From positions 515,153 through 579,152 of the forward strand of contig JBAZMP010000001.1 in NCBI GenBank assembly GCA_041649715.1: DNA of 64,000 nucleotides, given 5' to 3'. This DNA is from Patescibacteria group bacterium (GTDB lineage: Bacteria; Patescibacteriota; Patescibacteriia; JAXHNJ01). Positions 4,676 through 47,101 of the stretch are shown piece after piece; positions within the stretch are counted from its first letter, which is position 1; the number at the start of each line of letters is the position of its first letter. Position numbers and translations under genes: made by a program. Under the pieces are notes generated by a model that was not told where the DNA came from, searched no databases, and saw only the letters and a program-made list of their open reading frames with translations.

Positions 4676-4710
4676 AAAAATCCCCTCCATTCGTAAGAGG
4701 GGATTTGTTG
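4676..4710. terminator. Bidirectional hairpin terminator
   Basis: aaaatcccctccattcgtaagaggggatttgtt. Confidence 0.7.
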
Positions 4711-4727
4711 ACATACTGACGCGGTTT

Positions 4728-5111
4728 TCAAGCCGCCTGACGGAGGTAGGTCCGGCGTTTACTTCGCAGCCAGATCAGCTGGTTGACAAGTGCCGCTCTA
4801 AGGACACGGGTAGTCTGACCGGAGAAGTTGACGCGGAATGCGAGGCGTCTCTTGCCATGATGAATGAGACGGATAGGATGGAAAGTGACGTTTTCATGAT
4901 CGTTCTTTTCGCCGATAATAATGAAGTTACAGGCCTTAAGGCCCATGATCTTGTGATCAACGTCTTCGGCGAGGAAATACGTCGTCGCTCCTGGCACCCG
5001 GCTGTCCCGATAAAGACTGATCGTCACGAGACCCTTTCGGTCAATCTGGCAGCACAAAGTGGTCGGATTCTCCAAGGTCTGGCAGAAAGTCGTGGCGACA
5101 AGTTTTGCCAA
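4728..5111 (-). CDS. Hypothetical small protein on a GC-rich segment; TTG start with AAGGAGG RBS
   Basis: ORF with RBS 6 nt upstream, island-type promoter upstream, GC clearly above neighbours. Confidence 0.4.
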   Translation of the reverse strand: MAKLVATTFCQTLENPTTLCCQIDRKGLVTISLYRDSRVPGATTYFLAEDVDHKIMGLKACNFIIIGEKNDHENVTFHPIRLIHHGKRRLAFRVNFSGQTTRVLRAALVNQLIWLRSKRRTYLRQAA

Positions 5112-5179
5112 GCTAGACCTCCTTGTTACGCGTTTTCTTAAACTCCTAACAAAGAACGGGATTACTTAGTGTTTAAGAT

Positions 5180-5208
5180 AATTTACCCCGTTTGAAAAAA
5201 GTTGTCAA
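5180..5208 (-). promoter_or_regulatory. Sigma70-like promoter TTGACA-17-TAAATT (island type)
   Basis: Exact 17-bp spacer, TCTTGACA extended -35. Confidence 0.5.
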
Positions 5209-5312: not shown

Positions 5313-5612
5313 ATGTTGCGCTGGATCTTAGTAGTCTCGGTAATATCTATCCTGATCGGCAAATGGCTATGCAACCGGTCAGTCAGAAACTTCCAGTACA
5401 AGACAAGAACCGGACAGCAGGCACTGAACAGATATATACTTGATCTTAATTTCTGCGAAAGCGAAGGAGACACCAACCTGATGATTGAAAGTCAGGCGTC
5501 CTACTGGAAGCAGAGGAGAGCCGGCCTTTTCCTGCAGTACGCCGGCGCTTTCTTGCTTCTGATTACGCTCATCTCAATAGCTCTTTACGTAGTGGAGAAT
5601 CTGAAATATTAA
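5313..5612 (+). CDS. Small two-TM membrane protein
   Basis: GGGAGG RBS 6 nt upstream of ATG; the longer ORF from 5202 lacks an RBS. Confidence 0.5.
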   Translation: MLRWILVVSVISILIGKWLCNRSVRNFQYKTRTGQQALNRYILDLNFCESEGDTNLMIESQASYWKQRRAGLFLQYAGAFLLLITLISIALYVVENLKY

Positions 5613-5747: not shown

Positions 5748-6725
5748 ATGACTAAAATTAGCCAAGCCAAAGCAAAGAGTTCTTTTAGGTCTTCCCTACC
5801 TAATGTCGATGATTTCTTATTGAATCTACAGACAAATAATTATTCCAAAGAAACAGTTTACAATTACGAAAGAGATTTAAAAGTATTTGAAGAGTATCTT
5901 TCGGAGATGAGTCTCCCCTGGAAAAAGCTCAACCGGAGGGCTATTGAGCAATACAAGGCCTATTTGACCTCCATTGATCGAAAAACGGCCCAGAACGCCA
6001 AAATAGAGGCCAAATTGGGCTCATACAGCATTAATCGCATGCTTTCAAGCCTTAGATCCTACTTGAAGTACTTAATTGATAATGAATACGAAACCCCCAT
6101 TTCACCCGAGGTGGTGAAGCTGACTAAGACAGAGAAGAAACACCCGCGGGTGGCTGAGCTGGCCGATCTTATCCGCTTGATCGAATCCCCTGCTATTTTT
6201 GAAAAAAATAAAGAAGTGATCTTGCGCAACCGCGCCATGCTGGAAGTTTTATTTTCCACCGGTCTTAGAATTTCTGAACTGGTCAATCTCAACCGCGACC
6301 AGATTGACAATTCCGGCAAGATCTTTGTCATGGGCAAAGGGAAAAAAGAAAGATTCGTCTATCTGACCGAGCGGGCCAAAGAATATCTGAAAAACTACTT
6401 AAATACACGGAAAGATGATTCCCCTAGCCTATTCATCCCCTATCGCGGCTCGGCGGTCAAAACCACGCACCGGAGAATTTCCATAAATTATATTCAGGAG
6501 AGAATAAAAAGATACCGCGAGCTTTTAAAAATTAACGTGCCGACGTCAGCCCACAGTTTGCGTCACGGCTTTGCCACGTATTTAGCCGAATCCGGCGCCA
6601 ATCCGGCGGCGATTCAGATTCTTTTAGGTCATGAATCATTAGACACTACGACAAGATATGTACATGCTTCGGATAGATATGCGGAAGAAACGATGAAAAG
6701 GTTTCATCCGTTAAAAAATAAGTAA
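5748..6725 (+). CDS. Tyrosine site-specific recombinase, XerC/XerD (phage integrase) family
   Basis: N-terminal SAM-like domain; catalytic R...HxxR...Y (HSLRHGFAT, TTTRYVHAS). Confidence 0.8.
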   Translation: MTKISQAKAKSSFRSSLPNVDDFLLNLQTNNYSKETVYNYERDLKVFEEYLSEMSLPWKKLNRRAIEQYKAYLTSIDRKTAQNAKIEAKLGSYSINRMLSSLRSYLKYLIDNEYETPISPEVVKLTKTEKKHPRVAELADLIRLIESPAIFEKNKEVILRNRAMLEVLFSTGLRISELVNLNRDQIDNSGKIFVMGKGKKERFVYLTERAKEYLKNYLNTRKDDSPSLFIPYRGSAVKTTHRRISINYIQERIKRYRELLKINVPTSAHSLRHGFATYLAESGANPAAIQILLGHESLDTTTRYVHASDRYAEETMKRFHPLKNK

Positions 6726-6733: not shown

Positions 6734-7522
6734 ATGATTTATTTTAGAGAAAGAAACAAGCTAAAAAAGGATTATTCAGGCTTTCAAGAAGTTTCAAATT
6801 CTTTGAGAAATAAACTAAAAACTATCTGTGAAAAGTATATAATTAAAGGTATTGGTTTGGGTAACGAGAATTATTATTTGGATTACGATACTATAGCGTA
6901 TGAATTAAAAATACATCTTGATAAGGGAGATATCCTTGATATCATCGATACTGAAACATACGAGAATATTTTTGAAGCTATTGAAATATTCTTAAAAACT
7001 GCCGAAGGACACGTAATTCAAAGTGTTTATGAAGAAATCCTACTTAATATTGCTAGAGCCTTCAAACTTTCAGGAAGTGTATATAAAGTAAATTATGATG
7101 GTGAAATTGAGTTAAAAATAGATGAAAGCCTAGCCAAAAGCCTAAAAGAAACGGAAGAAATTTTAGGTGGTAATAAAAATGCCTATGAAACATTTTTTGA
7201 TGCCACTGCAGATTTATTAAAAAGAAAAGGCAAACCAGAAGATATTGTAAAAAATATTTTTGTAGCTTTTGAAGATTACTTAAAAAATGAGACTCATACT
7301 AATGGTTTTGATAAAGCCATTTCATGGTTAGAAAGCAAAAATATTATTAATGGACGACAAAAATCTATACTTGAAAAAATTAAATCGTATAGGAGTGACG
7401 CATATAAGGTTACACATGCGGGTGAATCCAGCAAACCAAGTGAAATTGACACTCTATGGTATTTAGATACAGTTGTCGCTCAATTAAAATTTATTGATAG
7501 GAAATTAAAAAATACGGCCTAA
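6734..7522 (+). CDS. Hypothetical protein, AT-rich, co-directional with the recombinase
   Basis: ORF only; no recognisable motifs. Confidence 0.4.
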   Translation: MIYFRERNKLKKDYSGFQEVSNSLRNKLKTICEKYIIKGIGLGNENYYLDYDTIAYELKIHLDKGDILDIIDTETYENIFEAIEIFLKTAEGHVIQSVYEEILLNIARAFKLSGSVYKVNYDGEIELKIDESLAKSLKETEEILGGNKNAYETFFDATADLLKRKGKPEDIVKNIFVAFEDYLKNETHTNGFDKAISWLESKNIINGRQKSILEKIKSYRSDAYKVTHAGESSKPSEIDTLWYLDTVVAQLKFIDRKLKNTA

Positions 7523-7562
7523 ATTAATAAAAATCAGGCCGAAAGGGTCTTATTTTTTAAAT

Positions 7563-7600
7563 AAAAAAGCGGTTCGCCAAAGGCGAACCGCGTCTGTTGA
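7563..7600. terminator. Bidirectional terminator between convergent genes
   Basis: aaaaagcggttcgccaaaggcgaaccgc plus T-run; a second weaker hairpin caggccgaaagggtct lies just upstream. Confidence 0.65.
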
Positions 7601-7612
7601 TTGAGTGAATCC

Positions 7613-8494
7613 TCACTTATAGAGCGCCTTGATGGCTCCCCAAGAAGATTCTTTAACGGCGATTGGCGGCCCATCACCGTAAGCACAAACAGAACCAATT
7701 ATTGTGGCATAGAGCCATCCCCAGCTGTTGATTGCGACACCAGTTGGATTAGGGGCTGTCGTTAATGAATATTGCATAACCCCGCCGCTGCTATACTTTA
7801 CCACGCCACTGGCAGTGTTTGTTGCCACATACACGAAGCCTGCGGCATCAGTTTCAAGATTGTAACAGCCTGGAGTCGACCACGTACTTATGGGATTCCC
7901 AAGTGTATCAAAAACGTCGACGACATTGGCACCCCGCTTGCCGACATAGACTAGTTGGCCGTTTTTATCCACCGCGACCCCGATACCATAACCACTCACG
8001 CCATAAGACCAGTGACGAATCAATTCACCGTCAGGAGTGAAGATAAGTATTTGAGCTTGAGAGGGATCGCAGACGTAGATCTCGCCGTTAGGTGCTTGAT
8101 CGATGCCGTACGGCCCGCTGAAGTTCGTGAATACGGGTATCGCCCATGATAGAACATGGTCTCCGTTCTGGGTGAACTTGCGTACCATACCGTTGTTTAA
8201 GTCGCAGACATAGATGTAGCCATCCTTTCCCGCCACGATACCGGTAGGAGTACTGAATAGTCCCGCCCCCCAAGTAAGGAGAGGCTGACCTTGATAATTG
8301 AGTTTGGTAACCCCTGCACCTATTTCTGTGTAGTAGATATTCCCACTCATATCAGCGGTAATATCTAGCGTAGTGCCGTTATTGGGGTCACCGGCAGGAA
8401 CACAGAAAATTTGCGATGGCGGGTTTTCCGCACTGGCGACGCCAGCGAAAGAGAAAGCGACAAACGCAATAATGACAAAGAGCATTCCTTTCAT
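7613..8494 (-). CDS. Secreted NHL-repeat beta-propeller protein (GC-rich island gene)
   Basis: Signal peptide MKGMLFVIIAFVAFSFAGVASA; repeated YVCD/YVAD blades; AGGAGG RBS before MKGM. Confidence 0.6.
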   Translation of the reverse strand: MKGMLFVIIAFVAFSFAGVASAENPPSQIFCVPAGDPNNGTTLDITADMSGNIYYTEIGAGVTKLNYQGQPLLTWGAGLFSTPTGIVAGKDGYIYVCDLNNGMVRKFTQNGDHVLSWAIPVFTNFSGPYGIDQAPNGEIYVCDPSQAQILIFTPDGELIRHWSYGVSGYGIGVAVDKNGQLVYVGKRGANVVDVFDTLGNPISTWSTPGCYNLETDAAGFVYVATNTASGVVKYSSGGVMQYSLTTAPNPTGVAINSWGWLYATIIGSVCAYGDGPPIAVKESSWGAIKALYK

Positions 8495-8554
8495 GACTTC
8501 TTCCTCCTTATTGTCATGAAAACCAAAAACACTTTTAACCATTTATATATCTAT

Positions 8555-8583
8555 GTCTTATATTAAATTGCCTTATTTGTCAA
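8555..8583 (-). promoter_or_regulatory. Island-type promoter GTCTTGACA-17-TAAGAC (weak -10)
   Basis: Conserved TCTTGACA block with 17-bp spacer. Confidence 0.35.
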
Positions 8584-8602
8584 GACAAAAATCAATCCTT
8601 AA

Positions 8603-8634
8603 TCAAAAAGCAGGCCGAAAGGGCCTCTTTTGTT
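8603..8634. terminator. Bidirectional terminator/insulator hairpin
   Basis: aaaaagcaggccgaaagggcctctttt; same caggccgaaaggg core as at 7532. Confidence 0.55.
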
Positions 8635-8689
8635 AAATCCGAAGCACTAAATCCAAAATCCTAAACTCTAAACCCTGGCATAAACAGGG

Positions 8690-8718
8690 TTGACAAAAAA
8701 ACAAAATACCGCTAAGGT
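8690..8718 (+). promoter_or_regulatory. Promoter TTGACA-17-TAAGGT
   Basis: 17-bp spacer; preceded by the hairpin accctggcataaacagggt. Confidence 0.5.
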
Positions 8719-8767
8719 TTTAGCGCCAAGGTTAATGTTTTCAAACACGAACCGGAGGTGGAAAGCC

Positions 8768-9235
8768 ATGCCAGAACGCTGGAATTTTCTGGTCCATGAT
8801 CCGATCAGATGGGCGAAATTCCGCTGCAACCTGGAAATTCCCAAATCGCTGCAAGAAGGCCGGGTCTACTGGGAATTCATCCCCTCAATCGGCGGCGGTA
8901 CGATCCTGAACCTTTTCAAGGTTCTGACCGTCAACGGGCATTTCGCCGAGATCCACATCATCTATCCCAGCTCGGTGGAGGAAAGGGATATCGTGCTCTT
9001 CTGCTGGAGCTGCGGGGAAGAATACATTCCCAGGAAACGCGAAGACATTTTCACCTGCCCCCTGTGCGGAATCAGCCAGGAGGATAAGGAGGCTAATGAC
9101 GAAGTAGCTGGGCAAAGCAGCGGCCCCCGCTGCCCCAAATGCGGCAGGACCATGTTTCCGGCGGATGAACACGGCCGTCAGGCCTGCCTTTGCGGAGGAA
9201 TGCGCGACATAGTCGCGGAGAACAGCGAACCGTAA
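8768..9235 (+). CDS. Hypothetical protein with two zinc-ribbon motifs
   Basis: GGAGGTGG RBS; CPLCG...CPKCG; the longer ORF from 8690 begins inside the -35 box. Confidence 0.5.
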   Translation: MPERWNFLVHDPIRWAKFRCNLEIPKSLQEGRVYWEFIPSIGGGTILNLFKVLTVNGHFAEIHIIYPSSVEERDIVLFCWSCGEEYIPRKREDIFTCPLCGISQEDKEANDEVAGQSSGPRCPKCGRTMFPADEHGRQACLCGGMRDIVAENSEP

Positions 9236-9265
9236 GGAGACAATATATCCTGAATCTAGCTCTTC

Positions 9266-9293
9266 GCCCGACGATCCTCGCCGGGCTTTTTCT
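9266..9293 (+). terminator. Rho-independent terminator
   Basis: gcccgacgatcctcgccgggc plus ttttt. Confidence 0.7.
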
Positions 9294-9354
9294 TTACCAA
9301 AAAACAGGACGAAATGACCTGATTTTGTTTCAAATCCAAGACTAAAAGTATGTC

Positions 9355-9383
9355 TTGACATTTATCATTTATTATGCTAACAT
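9355..9383 (+). promoter_or_regulatory. Promoter TTGACA-17-TGc-TAACAT
   Basis: gtcttgaca tttatcatttattatgc taacat. Confidence 0.6.
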
Positions 9384-9446
9384 TTTTCATTAAGAAGTTT
9401 TCCGATGCAAGCGATTCCTTGGTCTTAAAACAGGAGGTTGAGAAGC

Positions 9447-9959
9447 ATGAAGTTTATCGGCAATATCCGGTTGTTCTTTGAGAACGAAGAGATCCCGCTC
9501 GTCGTGCTCGAGAAATTCCGCGCTGACTGGAGCAAACTCAGCCTTCAGCCCGGTATTTTCGGCAGTGAATGGTCCAATCGGAGAGTGGCCTTGAGCCTGC
9601 TGTGCCAAAAGCTTCCTTTCGATATCGTGGCTGACGATCTCGCCGGCCAGCTTATGCTTCAGATTGAGCTGTCCCGTTTCCCCTACTCGATCAATGACCG
9701 GAAGGGATTCGAAGCTTTCAGCCTGAGGCTGGTTCCGGTCAAGGGGCGAATCGCCTTGATTCAGAAGGATACGGAAAGTCATATCGCCATCGATACTTTC
9801 GTATTTTCAGAAGAGGCTCTCTTCAGTAACGTGGGCAACGGCTCGGTTTACGTGGTAATCTACCGTGGCCGGCAGCCCAGAAAGTTGCCCGCTCTCTGCC
9901 CGCCGGATGGCTACCAGCCGGCTGTCGTCTTTGACGCAACCAACCCAGCGGGATTTTGA
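9447..9959 (+). CDS. Hypothetical protein (GC-rich island)
   Basis: AGGAGG RBS before MKFIG. Confidence 0.45.
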   Translation: MKFIGNIRLFFENEEIPLVVLEKFRADWSKLSLQPGIFGSEWSNRRVALSLLCQKLPFDIVADDLAGQLMLQIELSRFPYSINDRKGFEAFSLRLVPVKGRIALIQKDTESHIAIDTFVFSEEALFSNVGNGSVYVVIYRGRQPRKLPALCPPDGYQPAVVFDATNPAGF

Positions 9960-9975
9960 GATGTAAGTTAAGTAA

Positions 9976-10013
9976 GGTGCAACTCCATTCGGGAGCTCTG
10001 CACCTCTTTTTTT
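9976..10013 (+). terminator. Rho-independent terminator
   Basis: ggtgcaactccattcgggagctctgcacc plus tcttttttt. Confidence 0.75.
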
Positions 10014-10134
10014 AAATCCAAAATTTTAAATCCTAAATTTTAAACAAATTCGAAACACTAAAATCTAAAACCCGTTAGAATACTATTTCTAAATGGAAAA
10101 ATATGATTATCCCCTGATCTAATTTTTTTGGTAA

Positions 10135-10170
10135 TAAAAAAAGCGGGGCATTTAAGCTTGAAGCCCCGCC
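10135..10170 (-). terminator. Terminator of the minus-strand two-gene unit
   Basis: aaaaaaagcggggcatttaagcttgaagccccgc (T-run on the minus strand). Confidence 0.7.
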
Positions 10171-10195
10171 GATCAAAGGACTATCTTTTATGCGG

Positions 10196-10501
10196 CTAGA
10201 AACTCATGGCAAAGCCGTTTTCTCCGATTGCCCAGCAGTCGAAGCCGTCGCGGAAAGGCCCGATCACGATCTTGGCTTCCCCATTCGGCGTCATGAACTT
10301 GAACACTTTTTGCGCTTTCCGCCGCTTGCGAATACTGGCTTTTACCCTTTCCGGAGTCTTGGGATCACTCAGCAGATGATCCGCTATCGTGGATACTTTG
10401 AGGTTCGACACTTCCTCGAAGGTGACTTTGTCTGGATCCAAGCCGGCCATAGCGGCCGCATAGTGCTTGGCTTCTTCGACGCTTGAGAATTCCCTTGACA
10501 T
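10196..10501 (-). CDS. Hypothetical small protein, translationally coupled (ATGA overlap) to the upstream ORF
   Basis: Stop/start overlap with the 10501..10830 ORF. Confidence 0.45.
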   Translation of the reverse strand: MSREFSSVEEAKHYAAAMAGLDPDKVTFEEVSNLKVSTIADHLLSDPKTPERVKASIRKRRKAQKVFKFMTPNGEAKIVIGPFRDGFDCWAIGENGFAMSF

Positions 10502-10830
10502 CAGTCACTCCCTTCTTTGTCCATCTTTTTGAAATAAGCCGAGGCGTATTTCGCCGGTTTTCCATCCTTGTTTCTAAGCAGCTTCCCGCCCATCGTTTCA
10601 ATGCTGATCCACTGGGACGGCAAAGCGCCGCGGCCTCGGTCATTGACCAGCTGCTGGCGGAGATCCTTGCTTTTATCCTGGGAATGGCTTCCACGGGAAA
10701 AGTGCCTATCATTGCTTTCAACAGCCAGCACGATAAAAGGTCCTTGTCCGTCTTCATGGGCGATAGTAACGCTGGGATCCGCCCAATCAACTTTCTCGCC
10801 GACCTTGAATACCGGGCCGATAAGAGTCAT
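10501..10830 (-). CDS. Hypothetical small protein, first gene of the two-gene unit
   Basis: GGAGGG RBS; island-type promoter upstream. Confidence 0.45.
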   Translation of the reverse strand: MTLIGPVFKVGEKVDWADPSVTIAHEDGQGPFIVLAVESNDRHFSRGSHSQDKSKDLRQQLVNDRGRGALPSQWISIETMGGKLLRNKDGKPAKYASAYFKKMDKEGSD

Positions 10831-10889
10831 TGTTTACCCTCCCTGATTGTGATTTTAAAGAATCAGAATTGTTGCATGTTTAGCTAAAA

Positions 10890-10918
10890 ATGTTAGCAAA
10901 TATATTTAAGATTGTCAA
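10890..10918 (-). promoter_or_regulatory. Promoter TTGACA-17-TGc-TAACAT
   Basis: ccttgacaatcttaaatatatttgctaacat on the minus strand. Confidence 0.6.
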
Positions 10919-10933
10919 GGTTGAATTTTGGTT

Positions 10934-10965
10934 AAAAAAAGGAGCCTGGGCGGCTCCTTGCTTTT
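10934..10965. terminator. Bidirectional terminator
   Basis: aaaaaaaggagcctgggcggctccttgctttt. Confidence 0.7.
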
Positions 10966-10980
10966 AGTTTGGCAGAAGGT

Positions 10981-11310
10981 TTAAACATCCTCTTCCCGGC
11001 AATAGGGATTCCGAGGTATATGTCTGCGGCCGGATACCGGACTTCTTGGGCTCATTCTCGGTTGTTCGAGATCACGCACCGATTCGCCGGCCTTCGGCAC
11101 GGGAATGTCAAAAGCCGACTTTTTGGCGTCGCGCCAGCAGTGCGTGCAGAAATAGTTATTGGGGATTGTCACCTTCCCGTGGCAGCGGACGCAGATGCCG
11201 ATGCAGTCGGCACAGACCTTGATATGCTTCCACTTGGGATGGATCCTGGCCCCAAGCGCTGGCTTCATCTGCTTGCAGACCGAACACTTGATCATAGATT
11301 CTTCTGGCAT
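10981..11310 (-). CDS. Cys-rich zinc-binding small protein
   Basis: CSVCK...CADCIGICVRCHG...CTHCW. Confidence 0.5.
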   Translation of the reverse strand: MPEESMIKCSVCKQMKPALGARIHPKWKHIKVCADCIGICVRCHGKVTIPNNYFCTHCWRDAKKSAFDIPVPKAGESVRDLEQPRMSPRSPVSGRRHIPRNPYCREEDV

Positions 11311-11361
11311 TTACTCCCTCCTCGTTGACTGTTAATCAGGCTGAAATGTGCAAATCTGATT

Positions 11362-11390
11362 AACTTACACCCATTTTTTATTTTTGTCAA
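11362..11390 (-). promoter_or_regulatory. Promoter AATTAGATCTTGACA-17-TAAGTT
   Basis: Shares a 15-nt block with the promoters at 12405 and 12691. Confidence 0.5.
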
Positions 11391-11432
11391 GATCTAATTG
11401 CAAACACGACTATCCTCTATCTTTAGCTAGAT

Positions 11433-11468
11433 AAAAGCGAGCCCCGGGGAAAATCCCAACCAGGGCTC
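11433..11468 (-). terminator. Terminator
   Basis: gagccctggttgggattttccccggggctc plus gctttt on the minus strand. Confidence 0.6.
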
Positions 11469-11494
11469 AAGCTTGGTGAACGTATGTTCCGGCA

Positions 11495-11698
11495 CTACTT
11501 TTTTTCCGGAACCGGATCGTGGGCATGGGCTTTGGCGAACGCGATCATGGCATCCGAATTGCTCTGCTCTTTCAGCCAGAAAGCATGTTCCTCGTCTGTC
11601 GTGTCGCGCATCATCTCATCGCGCGTCTGCCCTCTTTCTTGGGCTGTGTGGTCGCAATAGTAGCGGCCACAGACCGGACATAAACTGGGCATTTCCAT
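11495..11698 (-). CDS. Small zinc-ribbon protein (67 aa)
   Basis: CPVCGRYYCDH. Confidence 0.45.
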   Translation of the reverse strand: MEMPSLCPVCGRYYCDHTAQERGQTRDEMMRDTTDEEHAFWLKEQSNSDAMIAFAKAHAHDPVPEKK

Positions 11699-11754
11699 CC
11701 TCCTGTGTAGGCGCCTTTTTGACAGATTTATTAGCTGATTTATAAGGATACATT

Positions 11755-11783
11755 AATTTAGCATGACCTGATAAAATAGTCAA
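11755..11783 (-). promoter_or_regulatory. Promoter TTGACT-17-TGc-TAAATT
   Basis: 17-bp spacer. Confidence 0.5.
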
Positions 11784-11800
11784 GATATTTAGGGCCTAAG

Positions 11801-11834
11801 AAAAAGCCGTCGGCAAGGCCAACGGCTTTCAAAA
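11801..11834. terminator. Bidirectional terminator
   Basis: aaaaagccgtcggcaaggccaacggctttcaaaa. Confidence 0.65.
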
Positions 11835-11855
11835 CTCCTTTCGGAAGTCTTGGTG

Positions 11856-12284
11856 CTAGGCGAGGTTACGGCGAAGGCCGTAATACTTGTTGGAGATATC
11901 CCGACGGATGATCTCCCAGGCCTCGCGAAAGAGCTGGCGGAGATGACGCATGGGCGAAGGACACATCTCTTTTTCGTAGCAGATCTCCGGCCAGATCAGA
12001 CCTCCCATAATCTTGAGGAACAGCTTCTTGGCATCGCGGATATCCACGAACTTGACCATCGCGAAATACATATCCCTTTGTCCGGACCACTGAATTTTCA
12101 GTGAGGCTTCGGCCGTCTTGTAACGGTATAAGCCCTGTTCTCGATGAGCGGTTACAGGAAAATGGACATAGGCCGTGCCGTAGTCATACCGCTGGCCATC
12201 CAGCACGGTCGGATCGGCGACTTCGAGCTCGCCCCCCACAGACATGAATTGCTCGGTCTCTCCATTGCGCCATAGATAGAACAT
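11856..12284 (-). CDS. Hypothetical protein (about 143 aa). The true start is at the internal Met (MFYLW) with a GGAG RBS.
   Basis: The upstream part of the long ORF, including its TTG start, coincides with the -35 box of its own promoter. Confidence 0.45.
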   Translation of the reverse strand: MFYLWRNGETEQFMSVGGELEVADPTVLDGQRYDYGTAYVHFPVTAHREQGLYRYKTAEASLKIQWSGQRDMYFAMVKFVDIRDAKKLFLKIMGGLIWPEICYEKEMCPSPMRHLRQLFREAWEIIRRDISNKYYGLRRNLA

Positions 12285-12376
12285 GGCTGACTCCTTTCTT
12301 CTTTCCGTCTCCGGTTTTTCCAAAGATCGGTGAGTGGAGGCCAATGTCAGTCGGGTATTTCCCGAATGACCAATCA

Positions 12377-12405
12377 TACTAGCACACTTTCTGATTTCTG
12401 TCAAG
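12377..12405 (-). promoter_or_regulatory. Promoter AATTAGGTCTTGACA-17-TGc-TAGTAT
   Basis: 17-bp spacer, extended -10. Confidence 0.55.
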
Positions 12406-12456
12406 ACCTAATTCCTAACACTGCTATCCCCTACTTTTCCGTTTTTAAGGCAATAA

Positions 12457-12656
12457 AAAAACGAGCCCGCACCGAAGTGGGGCTCTTGTAGGAGGGGATA
12501 TGCAAGAGATATGCGAAGGAACGATATTGAAGCGTGTACGCTTCGTGAGGTGGAGATGACGTTCGTAGACACTCCACTTGGACGCACCGAGCAGAATTGC
12601 TCAATTAGCGTCCTCGACGCGTTGACTAGGGGCTTGTACTGATTCTGCGCTACCTT
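12457..12656 (-). ncRNA. Candidate about 200-nt small RNA: island-type promoter and intrinsic terminator with no ORF of 60 aa or more
   Basis: Promoter at 12663-12691; terminator gagcccgcaccgaagtggggctc plus T7 on the minus strand; internal hairpins (gaagcgtacacgcttc; gtggag...ctccac); no ATG-initiated ORF. Confidence 0.3.
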
Positions 12657-12662
12657 TATTAA

Positions 12663-12691
12663 ACCTTATCATACCTCGTCTATATTGTCAA
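12663..12691 (-). promoter_or_regulatory. Promoter AATTAGGTCTTGACA-17-TAAGGT
   Basis: Drives the ORF-less unit. Confidence 0.5.
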
Positions 12692-12725
12692 GACCTAATT
12701 CAACGCTACTAAATAAATACAGATA

Positions 12726-12757
12726 AAAAGAAAAAGGACTCGCTAAGAGTCCTTTTA
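12726..12757. terminator. Bidirectional terminator
   Basis: aaaaaggactcgctaagagtcctttt. Confidence 0.7.
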
Positions 12758-12777
12758 TCACGAAATCAGAAAGTACA

Positions 12778-13146
12778 CTAGAGTCGGCGCAAATTGCCTC
12801 CGCCGGATTGAAAACTCAAGACCGCTTCCCTGATCGCCTGTACACGTCTATCTGACCAGCCTTCTTTAGAAACATTTCGGCAGATCTCGTCTGCGTCTAA
12901 AAGGCCGGGATTGGCCAGGCAGCTTTCGCAGAGAGAGAAACTGGCCTGACGGACAGGCTCCCCATTCTGGGGCTTATAAAGAATCAGGCCGGCTTCTTTG
13001 CCCCACCAAGTGTCTCGGCAGCCCGGACATTTTGTCCAGCCGTTTAGCGTTCCCGTCAGGTTACGAAGCCAGCGTAAACCGCCCGCCACGACGTACAAAA
13101 CGAAAAGACCGTAACAAAGTATCATTATTCCGAGCACTCTGTTCAT
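12778..13146 (-). CDS. TM-anchored Cys-containing hypothetical protein
   Basis: N-terminal TM; CPGC...CESC; GAGG RBS. Confidence 0.45.
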   Translation of the reverse strand: MNRVLGIMILCYGLFVLYVVAGGLRWLRNLTGTLNGWTKCPGCRDTWWGKEAGLILYKPQNGEPVRQASFSLCESCLANPGLLDADEICRNVSKEGWSDRRVQAIREAVLSFQSGGGNLRRL

Positions 13147-13194
13147 CTCTACCTCCTCGTTGTTAATCCCCTTTTAAGAAAAGATCAGCCTAAG

Positions 13195-13223
13195 ATATTA
13201 GCATAAGAATATATCTAAGTCAA
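13195..13223 (-). promoter_or_regulatory. Promoter TTGACT-17-TGc-TAATAT
   Basis: 17-bp spacer, extended -10. Confidence 0.55.
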
Positions 13224-13234
13224 GGCCCAATAAG

Positions 13235-15019
13235 TCAAATAAACCCACCGGCTTGAAGCTGCCAAAGATTCTTATATATGCCGTTCCGTTTCTTGATCAA
13301 CTGGTTATGAGCCCCCTCTTCCGTGATCCTGCCTCCATCTATCACAATGATACGATCCATTTTTTTAATGGTGGAAAGACGGTGGGCGATGGCCAAGACT
13401 GTTTTATTTTTCATCAGTTCATCTAATGCGTCCTGAATCAGCCGTTCTGATTCGGAATCTAAGGAAGAGGTCGCTTCATCCAATACCAAGATCGGCGCGT
13501 TATAAAGAATGGCCCGGGCAATCGCCACCCGCTGGCGTTCGCCGCTGGAAAGTTTGATCCCCCGCTCACCGACATGCGTCTCATACCCTTCAGCCAAATT
13601 AACGATAAATTCATGGCAGTGGGCAACTTTTGCCGCCCTGATCACCTCATTATCCGTTGCCTCGGGCCGGCCGTAACGGATGTTATCCCTAAGGCTCCGA
13701 TGGAACAATATCGGATCCTGGGGGACCAGACTGATTTGCCGGCGCAGACTTTTCTGGGTGACACGGCTTATGTTTTGGCCGTCGATGATGACGCGGCCGG
13801 CCGTCACTTCATGCAAACGCAGCAAGATTTTTATCAAAGTGGTTTTTCCGGCGCCGGAAGGACCGACCACGCCCAGTCTCTCGCAAGGTTTTACCGCCAA
13901 GTTAAATTTTTTCAGAACGGCGCGGGTCTTCTGGTAGTTAAAGTCTACCCGGTCAAAATTTATGATACCCTCTGACACCACTAGGTCTTTTGCCCCCGGC
14001 GCGTCCGTTATTTCAAGAGGCATCTCCAAAATGACCGTCATCTCTTCGGCATCAGCCAAACTTTCATAAATGTGACGGATCACTTTGCCAAAATCCCAGA
14101 TACGAGAAAAAATATTGATAAGGTAAGTTTGGATTAGAACAAAATCCCCGATAGTTATTATCTCCTTCTTCCACAAAAATATAGAAAGAAATAAAATTCC
14201 TATCTCCAGGCCGCTCATTAAGAATCCCTGAACCGCTTCAAAGATATTGCTGTAGTCCCAGGTCAGCTTGCGCAAAACTCGCAAGCGTTCATTAACCCGG
14301 CCAAACCCCTTGATTTCACGTTCGTAGCCGTCAAAAAGCTTGATCGTACTCTGGTTAGTGATCGTGTCGGCGATTACCGCCGTGGTCTTAGTTTCCGCCT
14401 CGCTGCGCCGGAGGTCATATTTTAGTTTAAATCGGATAAAAACGCCGTTTATTACCAGAAAAACCACAAGCCAAACCAATACACCGCCGCCTAAAAATAT
14501 ATTTCGCCGGAAAAGGATCGCGATAATAATACCGATATTTATTACCAGGGGGCCCAAATCCCAAAACAAACGGTCCGTGATAACTTCAAAAGAACGGGCG
14601 AACCATTTAACTTTTTTTACTAACGAGCCGACAAAGTTTTCGGTAAAAAAACCGAGAGAGTGTTTTTGCAAATAGGCAAAACAATACTCGGTAAGATCCG
14701 CCATGACCTTGGACTGAAAGTTACTGGCCGAAAATGTGGTTAATCGATAAAAAATCCATTGGGCGAGGCGCAAAAAAGTGATTATCACCACCACTGAAAT
14801 CAAACTGCTGACTACCGCTGAAATCAATTGTCCGCTGGTCAGCAGATCAACGAATTTTTTCAAATACAGGGGCACAATCACGTTCATTACCGCCGCTCCG
14901 ATAACGCCTACGAGGGTCAAGATGAGGGTTTTTTTGTAATGTAAACTCGCCCGCCAGTAATACGCTAATGTTTTTTTGATGTTTGATCTCATAAAATTAT
15001 TAATATCGGGATGTGGCAT
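13235..15019 (-). CDS. ABC transporter, fused permease/ATPase (MsbA-like exporter)
   Basis: 6 TM, Walker A GPSGAGKTT, LSGGERQR signature, Walker B LVLDEATS. Confidence 0.85.
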   Translation of the reverse strand: MPHPDINNFMRSNIKKTLAYYWRASLHYKKTLILTLVGVIGAAVMNVIVPLYLKKFVDLLTSGQLISAVVSSLISVVVIITFLRLAQWIFYRLTTFSASNFQSKVMADLTEYCFAYLQKHSLGFFTENFVGSLVKKVKWFARSFEVITDRLFWDLGPLVINIGIIIAILFRRNIFLGGGVLVWLVVFLVINGVFIRFKLKYDLRRSEAETKTTAVIADTITNQSTIKLFDGYEREIKGFGRVNERLRVLRKLTWDYSNIFEAVQGFLMSGLEIGILFLSIFLWKKEIITIGDFVLIQTYLINIFSRIWDFGKVIRHIYESLADAEEMTVILEMPLEITDAPGAKDLVVSEGIINFDRVDFNYQKTRAVLKKFNLAVKPCERLGVVGPSGAGKTTLIKILLRLHEVTAGRVIIDGQNISRVTQKSLRRQISLVPQDPILFHRSLRDNIRYGRPEATDNEVIRAAKVAHCHEFIVNLAEGYETHVGERGIKLSSGERQRVAIARAILYNAPILVLDEATSSLDSESERLIQDALDELMKNKTVLAIAHRLSTIKKMDRIIVIDGGRITEEGAHNQLIKKRNGIYKNLWQLQAGGFI

Positions 15020-15204
15020 TTTAAAAATCCCGCGCTCGGCGGGATGATTTCTTTGAAAAAAAGAGTGTTTTTCCCCAAATCACGCCGGTTTGAATCGGTT
15101 TTTTTTGAAATAAATTTGTCTGATTGAATAAATCATCTGCTGATCATTATAACGAAACCGTAAAAATGAGTCAAATTAAAGCATAAAAATGAGAGTTTAA
15201 TCGG

Positions 15205-15234
15205 CAAAAAAGGAGCCTTGGAGAGGCTCCTTAT
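15205..15234. terminator. Bidirectional terminator
   Basis: aaaaaaggagccttggagaggctcctt. Confidence 0.65.
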
Positions 15235-15257
15235 AAAGAACGGTCATGCGCCGCTTG

Positions 15258-15668
15258 TTACGGCTTAGCCTTGGGGCCGAAGAAACTGTCGAAGTGATCG
15301 GACAGCTGCTGGGCGAGATCACGCAGTTTGTGGCCGGAGCGTTGCATCACCCCGTAGAGACGGCCCTGAAAGGCGCGGAAGAGCGGATTGGTCGGGTTGA
15401 CCTCGAAATCCTCGAGCATCTTGATGGCGAAGACTTCGCCGAATTGACGATAGACCATGTCGACGGCCGCGCCGCAGCACTTCTCCACGTAGGTTCGGTC
15501 AAGCAGCGTGCCGACGCTCAAAGGCTCATCCTTTGTCCCGGTGTGCTTGGTGCCGCAGATCTCGCAGACGACGTTCCCAATCATGCTCTGGTTATTCGGA
15601 TTCCAGCCCAACCCGCTGACGAGCTGGCTAGGACCGACCGGAGCCTCAAAAATCGGCTTTTTGGGCAT
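15258..15668 (-). CDS. Hypothetical Cys-containing small protein on a GC-rich segment (outlier island module)
   Basis: AAGGAGGG RBS before MPKKPIF; CEICGTKH...EKCCGAA. Confidence 0.45.
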   Translation of the reverse strand: MPKKPIFEAPVGPSQLVSGLGWNPNNQSMIGNVVCEICGTKHTGTKDEPLSVGTLLDRTYVEKCCGAAVDMVYRQFGEVFAIKMLEDFEVNPTNPLFRAFQGRLYGVMQRSGHKLRDLAQQLSDHFDSFFGPKAKP

Positions 15669-15724
15669 CTTTTCCCTCCTTTGAAGAAACATGATAAAAG
15701 GACGCGAGGAATTTTATTATATAC

Positions 15725-15753
15725 ACCTTACTTGGCTTTGGGCAAAATGTCAA
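15725..15753 (-). promoter_or_regulatory. Promoter TTGACA-17-TAAGGT
   Basis: Island-type architecture. Confidence 0.5.
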
Positions 15754-15799
15754 GCCAAAAATCCTGGCCATAGATTATATTAATGATCATTTATGGTTA

Positions 15800-15838
15800 A
15801 AGAAAAAGAGCTCGTTGCCGAAGCTTCGAGCTCTCTCA
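15800..15838 (-). terminator. Terminator downstream of the M23 peptidase gene
   Basis: gagagagctcgaagcttcggcaacgagctc plus tttttcttt on the minus strand. Confidence 0.6.
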
Positions 15839-16008
15839 GATATGTGCGATTGTTCTTTAGAACTGATTATATATTAACATACCCAAAAATCATGTCAAGT
15901 ACTATTTTGGTTATTTTTTTGGCTAATATTCAAGGACTTATCACTAATAACATTAATTATCCCCAACTAAAAAAAGGTTTATAGCAGTTTACCCTTTTAT
16001 CCACATTT

Positions 16009-17409
16009 TTAATATAGATATGTAGCTGGATCGACAGGAATCGGAATACCGCTTTCATTGACTTTGCGGACTTCAAAATGCAGGTGCGCGCCGGTGGAAA
16101 AAACGCCCGCGCCGGCCGTGCCTGGCAGTCCCCCGCTGGCTCCTATTACCTGGCCTTTGGTGACAAAATCCCCTTCCGAGACATTGATACGGCTCAAGTG
16201 GCCGTAGACCGTGGAAAGGGTGTCGTTATGGATAATGCTCACGTAATTGTAAGCGGAACGTTTGCGGCCGCTGGCATCCGTCACCCAGTCCAGTTTTCGC
16301 GCAATGGCGACATAGCCGTCCGCGGCGGCATAGACCGGCGAGCCTTGGGACGTGGAAATATCCATGGCCGGATGGGAGCCCAGCCACCTTTGATAAGGAT
16401 AGCCATCGCAGTGGAAACCGCAGGTAACCACCTGGGAATCAACCGGCCAAACGAATGTGCCGGAAAATTCACCGTAATATGTTTCTCCTTTTTCTGAGGC
16501 CAATTTGGCCCGCATTCTTTTTTCCAAGGAGGACACTTCCGCTTCTACCGCTTGCTGCTGCTTGGTCAATTCCGCAAGCAAGGCCTGATATTCGCTTTCC
16601 GAACTCAAAGTTTGATCTAAAAGTATGTTTTGATAATCAACCTGCTGGCCTAAATCCGTTTTTTGGCGGACTAAAACCTCCTTGGTGTCGTCTAGTTCGG
16701 TCTTTTTACCCGAGAGATCTTCTTCTTTTACTTCCAAATCGTGTTTTAAGACGACGAACTCATCTAAATCCTTTTTAATCTCGCTTTGGATCTCATTTGT
16801 GTATTTGATCTGGCCGAAGAAATCGGAAAAACTGTCGTTCAGCAAGACAATTTCCAGATAGGATTTTTGGCCGTTCTTGTAAATGATTCTTAAGAACTCA
16901 GCGATCCGGCTCTTGCGCTGGTTTATTTCATCCTCTTTTTCCTTTATTTCGCTCTTGGTTTTTTCTATTTCAAGCTGGAGTTGTTCAATTTCCGTCTGTT
17001 TTTTGGTTATTTCAAGATTCGCCAAGCTTATCTGGTTATTCAGCAAATAAATTTCATTATTTAGGCTCGCTTTTTCTTTCTGCTTTTGGCTGATATTTTC
17101 TTGATAAACCCTTGATTGTTGGTTCAATTCATCGATGGCTTTTCTTTTTTCACTGATTTCGCTGGACAGGTTCCCCGTTTCTTCGGGGGCAGAAACAACC
17201 GTACTGTTCGTATTATCATTATTATTTGAGCGGTTCAAATTACTGTTCGCACTACCATTCACTTCCTGGGCGATAAGGGGCAGCGAAGAAATCAAAAAAA
17301 CAGCCAACATTATGAAGACTGTCATGTAGACAGAAATTTGTTTTGAGCGATTGATTATGTTTTTGTTTTTGGCCATTTTTGCTCTAGTTAGGCTTTCTTT
17401 CAACTGCAA
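16009..17409 (-). CDS. M23 family metallopeptidase with long N-terminal coiled coil (EnvC/LytM-like)
   Basis: C-terminal HxxxD...HLHFEVR M23 motifs; Q/E/K-rich coiled coil. Confidence 0.75.
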   Translation of the reverse strand: MQLKESLTRAKMAKNKNIINRSKQISVYMTVFIMLAVFLISSLPLIAQEVNGSANSNLNRSNNNDNTNSTVVSAPEETGNLSSEISEKRKAIDELNQQSRVYQENISQKQKEKASLNNEIYLLNNQISLANLEITKKQTEIEQLQLEIEKTKSEIKEKEDEINQRKSRIAEFLRIIYKNGQKSYLEIVLLNDSFSDFFGQIKYTNEIQSEIKKDLDEFVVLKHDLEVKEEDLSGKKTELDDTKEVLVRQKTDLGQQVDYQNILLDQTLSSESEYQALLAELTKQQQAVEAEVSSLEKRMRAKLASEKGETYYGEFSGTFVWPVDSQVVTCGFHCDGYPYQRWLGSHPAMDISTSQGSPVYAAADGYVAIARKLDWVTDASGRKRSAYNYVSIIHNDTLSTVYGHLSRINVSEGDFVTKGQVIGASGGLPGTAGAGVFSTGAHLHFEVRKVNESGIPIPVDPATYLY

Positions 17410-17435
17410 TGCATTATAGCAAAAAATGGCCGGTT

Positions 17436-18872
17436 TTACAAGTTTTCCAGTTTAATAAGCGCTTTTTTGACTTTATCAAGTGATTTTTGCCGGCCAAAAA
17501 TTTCGAGGATATCAAAGACATCCGGCGAAGCACGTTTGCCCGAGAGCGCCACCCGCAGGGGCCAAAGTACTTTCCCCGTCTTCAGATCATTCTCTTGAAT
17601 GTACTTTTCAAAGATTTGGCGCCAATCAGACGCTTTTAATTCAGCCTCCTTGACGTTTTCCAATTGCTTTTGGGCTAGCTTAAGGTTGCCGACTGTTTCG
17701 TTTTTATTGCTTTTTATCGGTATCAAGATTTCCGGCAAATAGTCGATCTCTTCAAAAACAAAATCGCAAAGTGAATTGATTTGTTTTAGAGTATTAATCC
17801 TTTCCTGGGCCATTCGCCAGACCTTTTCCAAGTTTATGTTCTTTTCCGTTGCCCTGGCCTGATATTCCGGTCGAAGATATGGCTGGCCAGCCTTGATCAA
17901 GCGCTCTAAAGACAGATTCCTGATATACAAACCGTTAAGCCAGAGAAGCTTGTCAAGATTAAAAACCGCTCCGGCTTTGTTTATGTTTTCTAAGGAAAAT
18001 TCCTTGATAAGCTCCTCGCGGCTGAAAAATTCCTTTTCTGTTTTGGGATTCCAGCCCAAAAAAGCGAGAAAATTCAGCATCGCTTCCGGTAGATAACCAT
18101 CCTTGATATATTGCAGGACAGAAGTCGCGCCGTGGCGTTTGGAAAGCTTTTTCTTATCATGGCCCAATATCATGGGCAGGTGGGCAAAAGCAGGCGGAGG
18201 AAATCCGAAAGCCTGGTAAAGCAAAATATGCTTGGGCGTCGAGGGCAGCCATTCTTCGGCGCGGATAACATGAGTAATGCCCATTTCATGGTCATCGACC
18301 ACCACGGCCAGGTGATAGGTGGGATAACCGTCAGATTTTAAAAGCACGGAATCATCAAGGTTATTATTTTCAAAAGAGACTATTCCCCGAATTATGTCTT
18401 TAAACTCCGTGACCCCGCTTTCCGGTATGTTCTGACGGATAACATAGGGCATCCCTTCTTTTAAATTTTTGTCAATTTCCCCCTGGTTTAATTTCAAGCA
18501 ACATTTGTCATAGCGCGGGGCCATTTTCTTTTCCGCCTGTTCGATTCTAAGCTTTTCCAGCCTGTCTTTTGAGCAAAAACAATAATAGGCCTTTTTTTCT
18601 CGTACCAGCCTTAAGGCCATTTTTTTATAGATCTCCCGCCTTTTTGACTGATAAATCGGGCCTTCGTCCCAAGCTAAACCCAGCCAGGTCAGCGCCTCCA
18701 TAATGCTTCCCACGCTTTTTTCCTGATATCTTTCCCGGTCGGTATCTTCAATGCGCAGTATAAACTGACCGCCCTCTTTTCGGGCAAACAACCAATTAAA
18801 CAGAGCGGTGCGCAATACCCCGACATGGGGTTCACCGGTGGGTGAGGGAGCGAAACGGACACGGACGCTCAT
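17436..18872 (-). CDS. gltX: Glutamate--tRNA ligase
   Basis: RFAPSPTGEPHVG (HIGH), KLSKR (KMSKS). Confidence 0.9.
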   Translation of the reverse strand: MSVRVRFAPSPTGEPHVGVLRTALFNWLFARKEGGQFILRIEDTDRERYQEKSVGSIMEALTWLGLAWDEGPIYQSKRREIYKKMALRLVREKKAYYCFCSKDRLEKLRIEQAEKKMAPRYDKCCLKLNQGEIDKNLKEGMPYVIRQNIPESGVTEFKDIIRGIVSFENNNLDDSVLLKSDGYPTYHLAVVVDDHEMGITHVIRAEEWLPSTPKHILLYQAFGFPPPAFAHLPMILGHDKKKLSKRHGATSVLQYIKDGYLPEAMLNFLAFLGWNPKTEKEFFSREELIKEFSLENINKAGAVFNLDKLLWLNGLYIRNLSLERLIKAGQPYLRPEYQARATEKNINLEKVWRMAQERINTLKQINSLCDFVFEEIDYLPEILIPIKSNKNETVGNLKLAQKQLENVKEAELKASDWRQIFEKYIQENDLKTGKVLWPLRVALSGKRASPDVFDILEIFGRQKSLDKVKKALIKLENL

Positions 18873-46600: not shown

Positions 46601-47030
46601 ATTTTAGCAGAATTTTGGCTTTTTGACAACTTGCCGTCTTTTTCAAAAATCAGTTTAGGTGGCTTAAAAGAACCATTTTTATGTAAAAACCAATAACCAA
46701 GAAACAAGAGAAAACAATGTCAATATTCAATATTCAATTTTCAAACTGTTAAGCGGCAAAAAGCGTTTGGTTATTGAGATTTGAAATTTAAATATTATTT
46801 GGAATACTTGTATCTTGTCTCTTGTTTCTTAACCAAAAAGCTGCCTATAAGCTTTGTCAATTTGAGAATGACTGTTCAGTAGCTTTGCTCCAGAAACTTT
46901 TGGTCCCTGAAACAAGAGGAGAGAGATTTGCTATTGCCACAGAAATTCTTGATTTTAGGCTTATAGACAGCTTTCTGTCTTCAATATAGAACACTATTGA
47001 AGAATTTGTCAAGAAGGTTTTTTAAAAGAA

Positions 47031-47101
47031 CCTCGTCTTAAGCTTACTAATTAGATAAATAAGCTTGAGAAGAGGGGGAAGACGCAACAAGGGTCTTCCC
47101 C
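47031..47101. repeat. Array element copy (terminal, degenerate): hp1-like ctcgtcttaagctta...taagcttgagaagag plus GC hairpin ggggaagacgcaacaagggtcttcccc
   Basis: Matches the element consensus and lies after the last array gene. Confidence 0.5.

Follow-up and report, generated by a model that had tools for sequence, protein, structure and literature searches.

The window analysed here is a stretch of 64,000 nucleotides (nt) from a Patescibacteria group bacterium (GenBank assembly GCA_041649715.1, contig JBAZMP010000001.1), and all coordinates refer to it unless another locus is named. Between a Xer-type tyrosine recombinase gene (5748..6725, + strand) and the backbone gene of an ABC transporter (13235-15019), the segment from 7.6 to 13.2 kb holds nine separate transcription units, each with its own promoter and its own hairpin plus U-run terminator, as a first-pass annotation had proposed. 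On balance we favour the view that autonomous expression cassettes make up this segment, which would be a flexible accessory region of a Patescibacteria (Candidate Phyla Radiation, CPR) chromosome. At NCBI the proteins carry WC528_ locus tags on a 608-kb contig with the label "Patescibacteria group bacterium", and the region is flanked by genes for the ABC transporter, an M23 peptidase, GluRS and a patatin.

Unit 1 (- strand) encodes an NHL/SGL beta-propeller of 293 amino acids (aa) at 7613..8494, with a -35 hexamer TTGACA at 8578-8583, a non-standard -10 and a terminator at 7569-7591 (folding free energy, dG, -19.7 kcal/mol). The next two are the only two of the nine on the + strand: unit 2 carries B155 (155 aa, two Cys4 zinc-ribbon-like sites; promoter 8690-8718, coding sequence (CDS) 8768-9235, weak terminators at 9266-9286 and 9309-9328) and unit 3 carries C170 (170 aa; promoter 9355-9383, CDS 9447-9959, terminator 9975-10005). 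Unit 4 is a bicistron on the - strand, in which F109 (10501-10830) and E101 (10196-10501) overlap by ATGA and share a single promoter (10890-10918) and a single terminator (10142-10170). It is followed on the same strand by unit 5 (G109, 109 aa, four CxxC motifs; promoter 11362-11390, CDS 10981-11310, bidirectional terminator 10939-10959), unit 6 (H65/H67, NCBI WC528_02700; promoter 11755-11783, CDS 11495-11692, or 67 aa from 11698, terminator 11439-11468) and unit 7 (I142, 142 aa; promoter 12376-12404, leader 12285-12369, CDS 11856-12284, terminator 11802-11830). Unit 8, without an open reading frame (ORF), is a candidate small RNA (sRNA) gene (- strand; promoter 12663-12691, predicted transcript about 12455-12656, terminator 12463-12485), and unit 9 encodes K122 (- strand, 122 aa; promoter 13195-13223, CDS 12778-13146, terminator 12732-12756), with an N-terminal transmembrane (TM) helix followed by CPGC...CxxC. 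The start of H is probably the second ATG, giving 65 aa, and NCBI calls it likewise. Since F109 and E101 overlap behind one promoter and before one terminator, the seven protein-coding small-gene units encode eight small proteins and not the seven of 67-170 aa initially counted; CxxC motifs are found in four of the region's proteins (B155, G109, H65 and K122), one fewer than had been reported.

Two modules of the same type had also been placed outside the region, and both were confirmed with a matching promoter: X127 (- strand, 127 aa, TTG start, GC content at third codon positions (GC3) 0.625; promoter 5180-5208, CDS 4728-5111, terminator 4678-4706) and Y136 (- strand, 136 aa, invariant CxxCG...CCG; promoter 15725-15753, CDS 15258-15668, terminator 15210-15232). 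The list was incomplete, as a further unit, M99, lies at 5313-5612, and a tiny ORF-less unit at about 15808-15898 (- strand), flanked by the M23 peptidase gene and the cassette of Y136, has TTGACA-16-TAATAT with a TG extension, a terminator hairpin about 30 nt further on and a predicted RNA of about 60 nt. Gene calls on the 382-kb metagenome contig ERZ27247363 of the European Nucleotide Archive, which also contains the window, give antisense ORFs at 8885-9361 (-), 4857-5141 (+) and 15246-15773 (+) in place of B155, X127 and Y136; the cassette strand at all three is backed by promoter, ribosome-binding site and terminator, and for X127 and Y136 by homologues too.

Inspection of the promoters revealed a common design. 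The motif TTGACW-N17-TAnnnT has 12 matches in the window where 0.85 would be expected, and none of 100 shuffles gave more than 5; eight of the matches fall within 8690-13223, one each at 5180 and 15725 serves the two outside modules, and one lies upstream of the ABC gene. It was found in eight of the nine region units, with the 17-bp spacing and TAnnnT first described for all of them. The exception is the NHL unit, where TTGACA is followed either by 15 bp and TATAAG or by 17 bp and TAAGAC. A TG at -15/-14 is present in 7 of the 10 cassette promoters, so that an extended -10 is indeed usual; the exact TGC was noted in only five of those. Among backbone operon starts with an upstream gap of at least 40 nt, such a promoter precedes 3 of 14 (M99, Xer and ABC), and all three lie inside the 4.7-15.8 kb stretch. 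The cassette promoters are near-consensus sigma-70 promoters. A sequence upstream of the -35 (AATTAGGTCTTGACA) is common to the G109, I142 and sRNA promoters (78-100% identity; repeat pair 11374-11424 and 12388-12438).

Hairpin plus U-run terminators close all nine units (dG -14 to -25 kcal/mol, that of B155 being weak), and one terminator type (AGGCCGAAAGGGCCU) is present in three copies (7529-7562, 8605-8638 and 9299-9332). Ribosome-binding sites are of the AGGAGG type in all units, in agreement with the strong sites announced by the first-pass annotation, and leaders measure 35-95 nt. Each product would be expressed independently of its neighbours, and the level is probably high. Also within this stretch, the promoter and the leader of about 150 nt of the ABC gene (about 15020-15145, - strand) are strongly conserved with a related genome, L048 (GCA_043812155.1; other loci retrieved from sequence collections are likewise given L numbers); the leader includes a terminator-like hairpin (AUCCCGCCGAGCGCGGGAUUUUU) directly before the start codon and may be a transcription attenuator.

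An array of small, functionally unassigned genes that are separated by hairpins and adjoin a tyrosine recombinase invites comparison with an integron, in which the recombinase would insert small cassettes at hairpin recombination sites. The recombinase scored 203, 191 and 179 bits on the NCBIfam models of XerC, XerD and XerA, all below their cut-offs, and only 69.9 bits on the integron integrase model TIGR02249 (cut-off 265). The hairpins between cassettes are unrelated perfect GC stems followed by U-runs, and are therefore terminators and not an attC family. In addition, every cassette has its own promoter, both orientations are used, and the recombinase has cassettes to its left and right. 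An integron-like array is thus very unlikely.

The recombinase is a generic Xer embedded among the cassettes. It marks no island edge, because cassettes lie on either side of it and neither att-like repeats nor a tRNA are found nearby: no direct or inverted repeat of at least 13 nt links the flanks near 7600 and 13235, where att sites had been suspected, and the adjoining tRNA that had been mentioned is lacking, none being present within 20 kb (nearest at 34.4 kb). No clean insertion border was found for the Y136 cassette. Of the traits of classical islands, atypical GC and codon usage and variable presence (judged against one close relative) are seen here, whereas the tRNA and direct repeats are not; as to a mobility gene, there is a Xer-type recombinase, though one of backbone composition (GC3 0.49) and set among the cassettes. 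In two more distant relatives a Xer gene lies about 1 kb from the ABC gene. Directly 3' of the window's Xer gene is a 262-aa orphan ORF (ORFan), p262 (6734-7522, +), with GC 0.29 and GC3 0.20, the minimum of the window, and no Pfam or NCBIfam match.

The product set comprises four Cys4 zinc-ribbon-like proteins, one membrane-anchored Cys4 protein, a secreted NHL propeller and an sRNA of about 200 nt. CxxC-type knuckle pairs providing four Cys ligands are found in B155, G109, H65, K122 and Y136, which are predicted to be metal-binding, zinc-ribbon-like proteins; invariance across the family was shown for K122 (C40, C43, C73 and C76, as CPxC...CxxC after the TM helix) and Y136 (C35, C38, C64 and C65, in CxxCG...CCG...D). 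Apart from the propeller, which scored 36.7 bits as NHL and 37.2 bits as SGL, Pfam yielded only zinc ribbons below threshold; the best match of B155 is the HVO_2753 zinc-binding pocket (26.4 bits, cut-off 33.2). This agrees with the earlier remark that the products have no recognisable enzymatic motifs. All products look cytoplasmic save the NHL protein, which has an N-terminal Sec-type signal peptide (MKGMLFVIIAFVAFSFAGVASA), and K122 with its single TM helix. The likeliest roles would be those of small zinc-dependent factors that bind nucleic acids or proteins.

Homologues were sought by an exhaustive HMMER search with the concatenated proteins among 1.84 billion representatives, which returned 327 representatives at E <= 1e-3. 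Counted as clusters at 50% identity, the families have 59 (Y136), 34 (I142), 23 (E101), 21 (C170), 9 (K122), 3 (G109), 2 (F109) and 2 (X127) members, X127 having a single homologue at 49% identity. B155 is an orphan that retrieved only itself from the same representatives, and H65/H67 likewise found only itself in a word-index search, which is insensitive; a profile search with one of the family alignments in that index returned no more than 6 proteins and says little on taxonomy. Conserved motifs are R..G.Y...GxIWP...RHLRQL in I142 and RFPYSI...GNGS in C170. AlphaFold2 gave confident models of both, C170 with a predicted local distance difference test (pLDDT) score of 91.7 and a predicted template modelling score of 0.87, and I142 with a pLDDT of 92.4. 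The C170 model has no Foldseek match in the PDB or among viral models at E < 0.1, and the I142 model has no fold match in the PDB. Two small-protein families with confident models and no PDB counterpart offer a handle on the functionally unassigned share of CPR genes.

Some assignments were tried and rejected. E101 was rejected as ribosomal protein L19, which had come into view because a homologue follows trmD, since it has no Pfam match. F109/E101 does not fit a type II toxin-antitoxin pair: the overlap is present, but there is no Pfam or PADLOC match and the partnership is not conserved, an F109 homologue being paired with an unrelated 74-aa gene and an E101 homologue standing alone between trmD and rny. 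In L049 the gene next to the Y136 homologue also encodes 170 aa, but it is no relative of C170.

Two RNA elements are conserved and backed by covariation, the sRNA and the 5' leader of I142. The ORF-less unit (12455-12691) folds with z = -4.1. Conservation in L048 (9705-9914), L060 (161-375) and L061 extends over promoter, core and terminator; the unit forms two hairpins with one compensatory change each, and no ORF is conserved. The alternative of a small-protein gene was rejected, as the 57-aa ORF crosses the terminator and is interrupted in L048. We regard the unit as a candidate gene for an sRNA of about 200 nt. In the I142 leader of about 90 nt, a CCACU box and a 10-bp hairpin are followed by AAAGAAGAAAGG and the start codon. 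Copies were located at 12285-12369 (-) of the window and in L054 (7311-7415), L055 (380-487), L056 (7759-7868), L057 (31-138) and L058 (7683-7793), and across these six genomes 8 of the 10 hairpin pairs show compensatory changes. The motif was located only upstream of I142 homologues. Translational autoregulation is suggested because the covarying hairpin adjoins the ribosome-binding site: I142 would probably repress its own translation through it. Rfam gave no match at gathering thresholds over the window, and no relevant match at E <= 1 over 7400-13400, which covers the sRNA unit and the I142 leader.

The composition jump reported downstream of the recombinase was confirmed quantitatively. 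In 1-kb windows, GC rises from 0.39 at 6-8 kb to 0.46-0.52 at 8-14 kb. The nine CDS of the region have GC 0.531 and GC3 0.616, versus 0.443 and 0.501 for 41 backbone CDS. A codon index, comparing S-ending with W-ending codons of the AT-type amino acids, was 0.48-0.71 in 12 of 12 cassette genes and 0.15-0.44 in 41 of 41 backbone genes, a complete separation (Mann-Whitney U = 492 of 492, p = 1.8e-7), so that codon usage as well as composition is distinct from the backbone. The shift is concentrated in AT-type codons, for instance TTC (0.75 in cassettes, 0.27 in backbone), AAG (0.61 and 0.29), ATC (0.63 and 0.39) and CTC (0.29 and 0.06), and the four-fold families are unchanged.

Sharp compositional steps in a contig of metagenomic source could in principle result from an assembly chimera, with GC-rich fragments of another organism joined into the contig. 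This is extremely unlikely: three contigs of up to 608 kb, assembled independently, carry the same proteins, the junction from ABC to sRNA and K122 is conserved in a different genome, and cassettes alternate with backbone genes (Xer, ABC) at the scale of single genes.

That different genome is L048. The window ABC transporter is 56-66% identical to homologues from Patescibacteria metagenome-assembled genomes and 83% identical to that of L048, where the order WecG, AA-permease, GluRS, M23 and ABC is kept and continues with the sRNA unit and then K122 (68% identical), which occupies the same position after the ABC gene. Beyond K122, L048 continues with small genes unrelated to those of the window, a gene for a larger NHL protein and further ones, so that only K122 and the sRNA are common to both regions, in a comparison with one close relative; the Y136 cassette is absent from the M23-ABC gap of L048. 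At L002, the closest relative among the genome contigs searched (66% ABC identity), neither synteny nor an island was seen. Promoters are conserved with their genes for K122, the sRNA and F109, and a TTGACA-type promoter lies upstream of every I142 homologue examined. In L060 the F109 homologue has the promoter TTGACAAT...TTTGCTAACnT and is followed by a 74-aa gene instead of E101, next to an rve transposase; a homologue of this 74-aa gene (E = 1e-13) follows K122 in L048. Further along L048 (16134-17417), a radical-SAM gene precedes one for a 62-aa Cys/Asp-rich peptide (GGCDCDGDCGQNDCDCPSG), which looks like a maturase and precursor pair for a ribosomally synthesised and post-translationally modified peptide.

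Homologues were found among housekeeping genes in small genomes, most of them low in GC, with two of the homologues labelled Patescibacteria. Y136-like genes lie between ClpB and LepA/DivIC in L049 and next to YchF in L065; the E101-like gene of L050 is the one between trmD and rny; C170-like genes are near Grx, DivIC, LepA and MurJ in L052/L053; and I142-like genes adjoin YchF and DUF5671 in L056 and lie between YceG and MnmA in L058, DnaB being also near among L056, L058 and L065. No co-occurrence of families was seen in the loci retrieved. Whether the small proteins are conserved core genes of related genomes, which was named at the outset as speaking against an island of foreign modules, thus has a divided answer: five families are widespread with housekeeping neighbours, and K122 and the ORF-less unit are syntenic, whereas the rest has turned over. 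Among the loci with a K122 relative, L064 (GCA_030647965.1) has at 8800-20330 some 20 same-strand small ORFans, the K122 relative included, with GC 0.33-0.45 over a backbone GC of 0.27. It is labelled Nanoarchaeota; its neighbours TGT, alanine racemase and GatB suggest a bacterial genome, and the label may be wrong.

The homologous loci also bear on the origin of the GC-rich composition. The family gene has a higher GC3 than its neighbours in L049 (0.335, neighbours 0.15-0.24), L052 (0.49, 0.22-0.42), L054 (0.49, 0.28-0.39), L064 (0.38, 0.10-0.24), L065 (0.415, neighbour median 0.30) and L048 (0.645, 0.44-0.625); no clear excess was found in L050, in L066 or in the GC-0.53 contigs L056 and L058. 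Family-gene GC3 therefore follows the host with an offset, smaller as host GC rises and larger in AT-rich hosts. Because family genes are richer in GC3 than their neighbours in most genomes examined, composition is poor evidence of recent foreign origin. K122, moreover, is GC-rich in two species and has diverged as a core gene would (68%, against 64-83%), which also argues against such an origin. The GC-rich composition looks intrinsic to the gene families rather than recently foreign. The codon dialect might reflect codon selection in strongly expressed genes, or GC-biased gene conversion in recombining DNA. Expression-linked codon selection fits the consensus promoters and the strong ribosome-binding sites. 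A survey of Patescibacteria hints at the same ambiguity between expression and foreignness, having flagged highly expressed genes as "transferred", among them those of ribosomal proteins, tuf and groS (PMC12455944).

The competing explanation is a recent import from GC-richer (about 53%) Patescibacteria or from a mobile element of theirs, with cassettes that are not yet adjusted to the host, whose composition would be truly foreign and whose promoters would work through the universal sigma-70 consensus. The complete bimodal separation of codon usage from the backbone speaks for it, and the turnover of gene content relative to L048, the rve transposase adjoining a related cassette pair in L060 and the fact that gene exchange is mostly within Patescibacteria (PMC12455944) are in line with it. 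K122 and the sRNA, however, are syntenic in L048, predate the species split and are still GC-rich in both genomes, and the divergence of K122 is core-like. The GC3 of the families tracks the host over 0.34-0.70 instead of holding one donor value, the four-fold codon families show no shift, and there are no att sites and no tRNA. We consider a recent import possible but not probable.

Several observations weigh against a native region of expression cassettes with an intrinsic dialect, and some of them side with the import. Promoters just as good precede the ABC and Xer genes, and yet these two use the codons of the backbone, which weakens the link between expression and codons. A second GC-rich island at 47-57 kb has the dialect of the reported region despite the absence of TTGACW-17-TAnnnT promoters, and a "high-expression" signature on about a quarter of the window seems too much. 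GC at first and second codon positions is raised besides GC3, which is compatible with a GC-richer donor, and I142 homologues look native on contigs of GC 0.51-0.53, those at 0.53 being possible donors. The strength of expression is read from sequence alone. The restriction of most product families, so far, to Patescibacteria-like genomes is based on few labelled records and on gene context. Finally, no mechanism of cassette movement was found, in the form of repeats, a tRNA or clean indel borders.

The second island (47000-57000, genes on the - strand; CDS GC 0.53, GC3 0.67) contains about 15 small ORFans, and in many of them the N-terminus is a TM helix or a signal peptide; there are paralogues at 51313-51753 and 52873-53328. 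Between upstream terminator and next ribosome-binding site it carries a stereotyped element of about 45 nt, at 48378-48420 and at about 48968, 49680, 50175, 50580, 51133, 51790, 52700, 53830, 56480 and 56840. The eleven copies share one coding-strand hairpin (CUCUCnAG...CUnAAGAGAG), in which 7 of the 15 pairs show compensatory changes, and a conserved AGnTCWTTGA comes after it. The element was rejected as a sigma-54 promoter, the GG-to-GC spacing being about 2 nt too long, and as a sigma-70 promoter, there being no consistent -10 downstream of TTGA. In addition, a structured-looking repeat of about 180 nt occurs in two copies (52480-52680 and 55805-55975; nhmmer E = 2e-34) upstream of two island-2 genes, with no Rfam match at gathering thresholds.

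As for a viral origin of the reported region, the first-pass annotation had seen phage morons or defence and host-interaction cargo in these modules, which would then have been left by a prophage or defence island beside the recombinase. The description behind it stands: the units are insulated, individually promoted and terminated, and of deviating composition. This plan is moron-like, a tyrosine recombinase is nearby, the NHL protein is predicted to be secreted, and the AT-rich p262 has a weak PADLOC match (PDC-S32, E = 5e-4). The attribution itself is not supported. There is no phage gene within 3-17 kb, whether structural or for replication or lysis. PHROG yielded no more than a generic beta-propeller match to the NHL protein and a marginal one to B155 (E = 3.5e-4). 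Of the ten cassette proteins PADLOC matched B155 alone, marginally (E = 0.003) and on its zinc-ribbon stretch, and neither this match nor that of p262 is convincing. The proposed look-up in phage sequences was run with all ten small proteins by tblastn against 50,697 phage records (INPHARED), without a match, and IMG/VR, scanned with the sRNA core and with the motifs of the I142 and Y136 families, yielded no relatives. The C170 model is unmatched among viral structure models, homologues sit among housekeeping genes, and most products are without secretion signals. Phage or defence cargo is thus largely refuted at the available sensitivity and quite unlikely. The region belongs to a general kind already known, that of genomic islands or flexible regions, and is not a phage or defence element.

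In the cassette region that we favour, each cassette comprises a sigma-70 promoter, a leader, a ribosome-binding site, one small gene (two genes in one case, an sRNA in another) and an intrinsic terminator. What is conserved is the whole cassette with its promoter, and homologous cassettes are found at unrelated chromosomal sites and in differing combinations in other genomes. Since all but K122 and the sRNA were replaced between two related species, the region would change as whole cassettes are gained and lost, probably by being exchanged between Patescibacteria. If cassettes are exchanged from promoter to terminator, streamlined symbionts would have a simple route to renew their accessory genes. 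Tiny as CPR/Patescibacteria genomes are, much of their gene content is functionally unassigned, and the families of this region carry clear expression signals. A bolder proposal, speculative and rather unlikely, is that of a phylum-wide Patescibacteria pool of promoter-gene-terminator cassettes, with small zinc-binding proteins, unmatched folds and at least one sRNA, that move between chromosomes as units without recognisable mobile machinery and keep their GC-rich dialect in hosts of any composition. If true, phage morons would have a counterpart in cells, and the pool would be a main origin of the "hypothetical" genes in reduced genomes.

Morons were reportedly described by Hendrix and colleagues, about 2000, as promoter-gene-terminator units between conserved prophage genes. 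The cassettes resemble them in that a single small gene has a promoter and a terminator of its own, and in a composition unlike the surroundings; they differ in having no prophage context, no matches in phage collections and chromosomal homologues. With integron arrays they share small, functionally unassigned genes near a tyrosine recombinase and cassette-wise turnover, and they differ from them in lacking an IntI-type integrase and an attC family and in having their own promoters and both orientations. Ribosomal-protein operons have autoregulatory leaders, and RNA-binding proteins can repress their own translation through a hairpin beside the ribosome-binding site. The I142 family, with its covarying leader hairpin beside that site in six genomes, is similar in this respect, whereas I142 itself matches no ribosomal-protein or RNA-binding family and its leader is not in Rfam. 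Archaeal zinc-finger micro-proteins such as Haloferax HVO_2753 (PMC6562870) are likewise small and cytoplasmic, with one or two C(P)xCG sites and no enzymatic domain; the host here is bacterial (CPR), and there is no significant sequence relationship.

The region is also like the genomic islands of Patescibacteria, which are many (PMC12455944, mSystems 2025) and with which it shares deviant composition, many hypothetical genes, variable content and exchange within the phylum. It differs from them in having no tRNA, direct repeats or dedicated edge integrase, and in being a gene-by-gene mosaic with the backbone in which every gene has its own transcription unit. It differs also in that the compositional offset follows the gene families across hosts, so that calls of "foreign DNA" based on composition may mislead island prediction in Patescibacteria.

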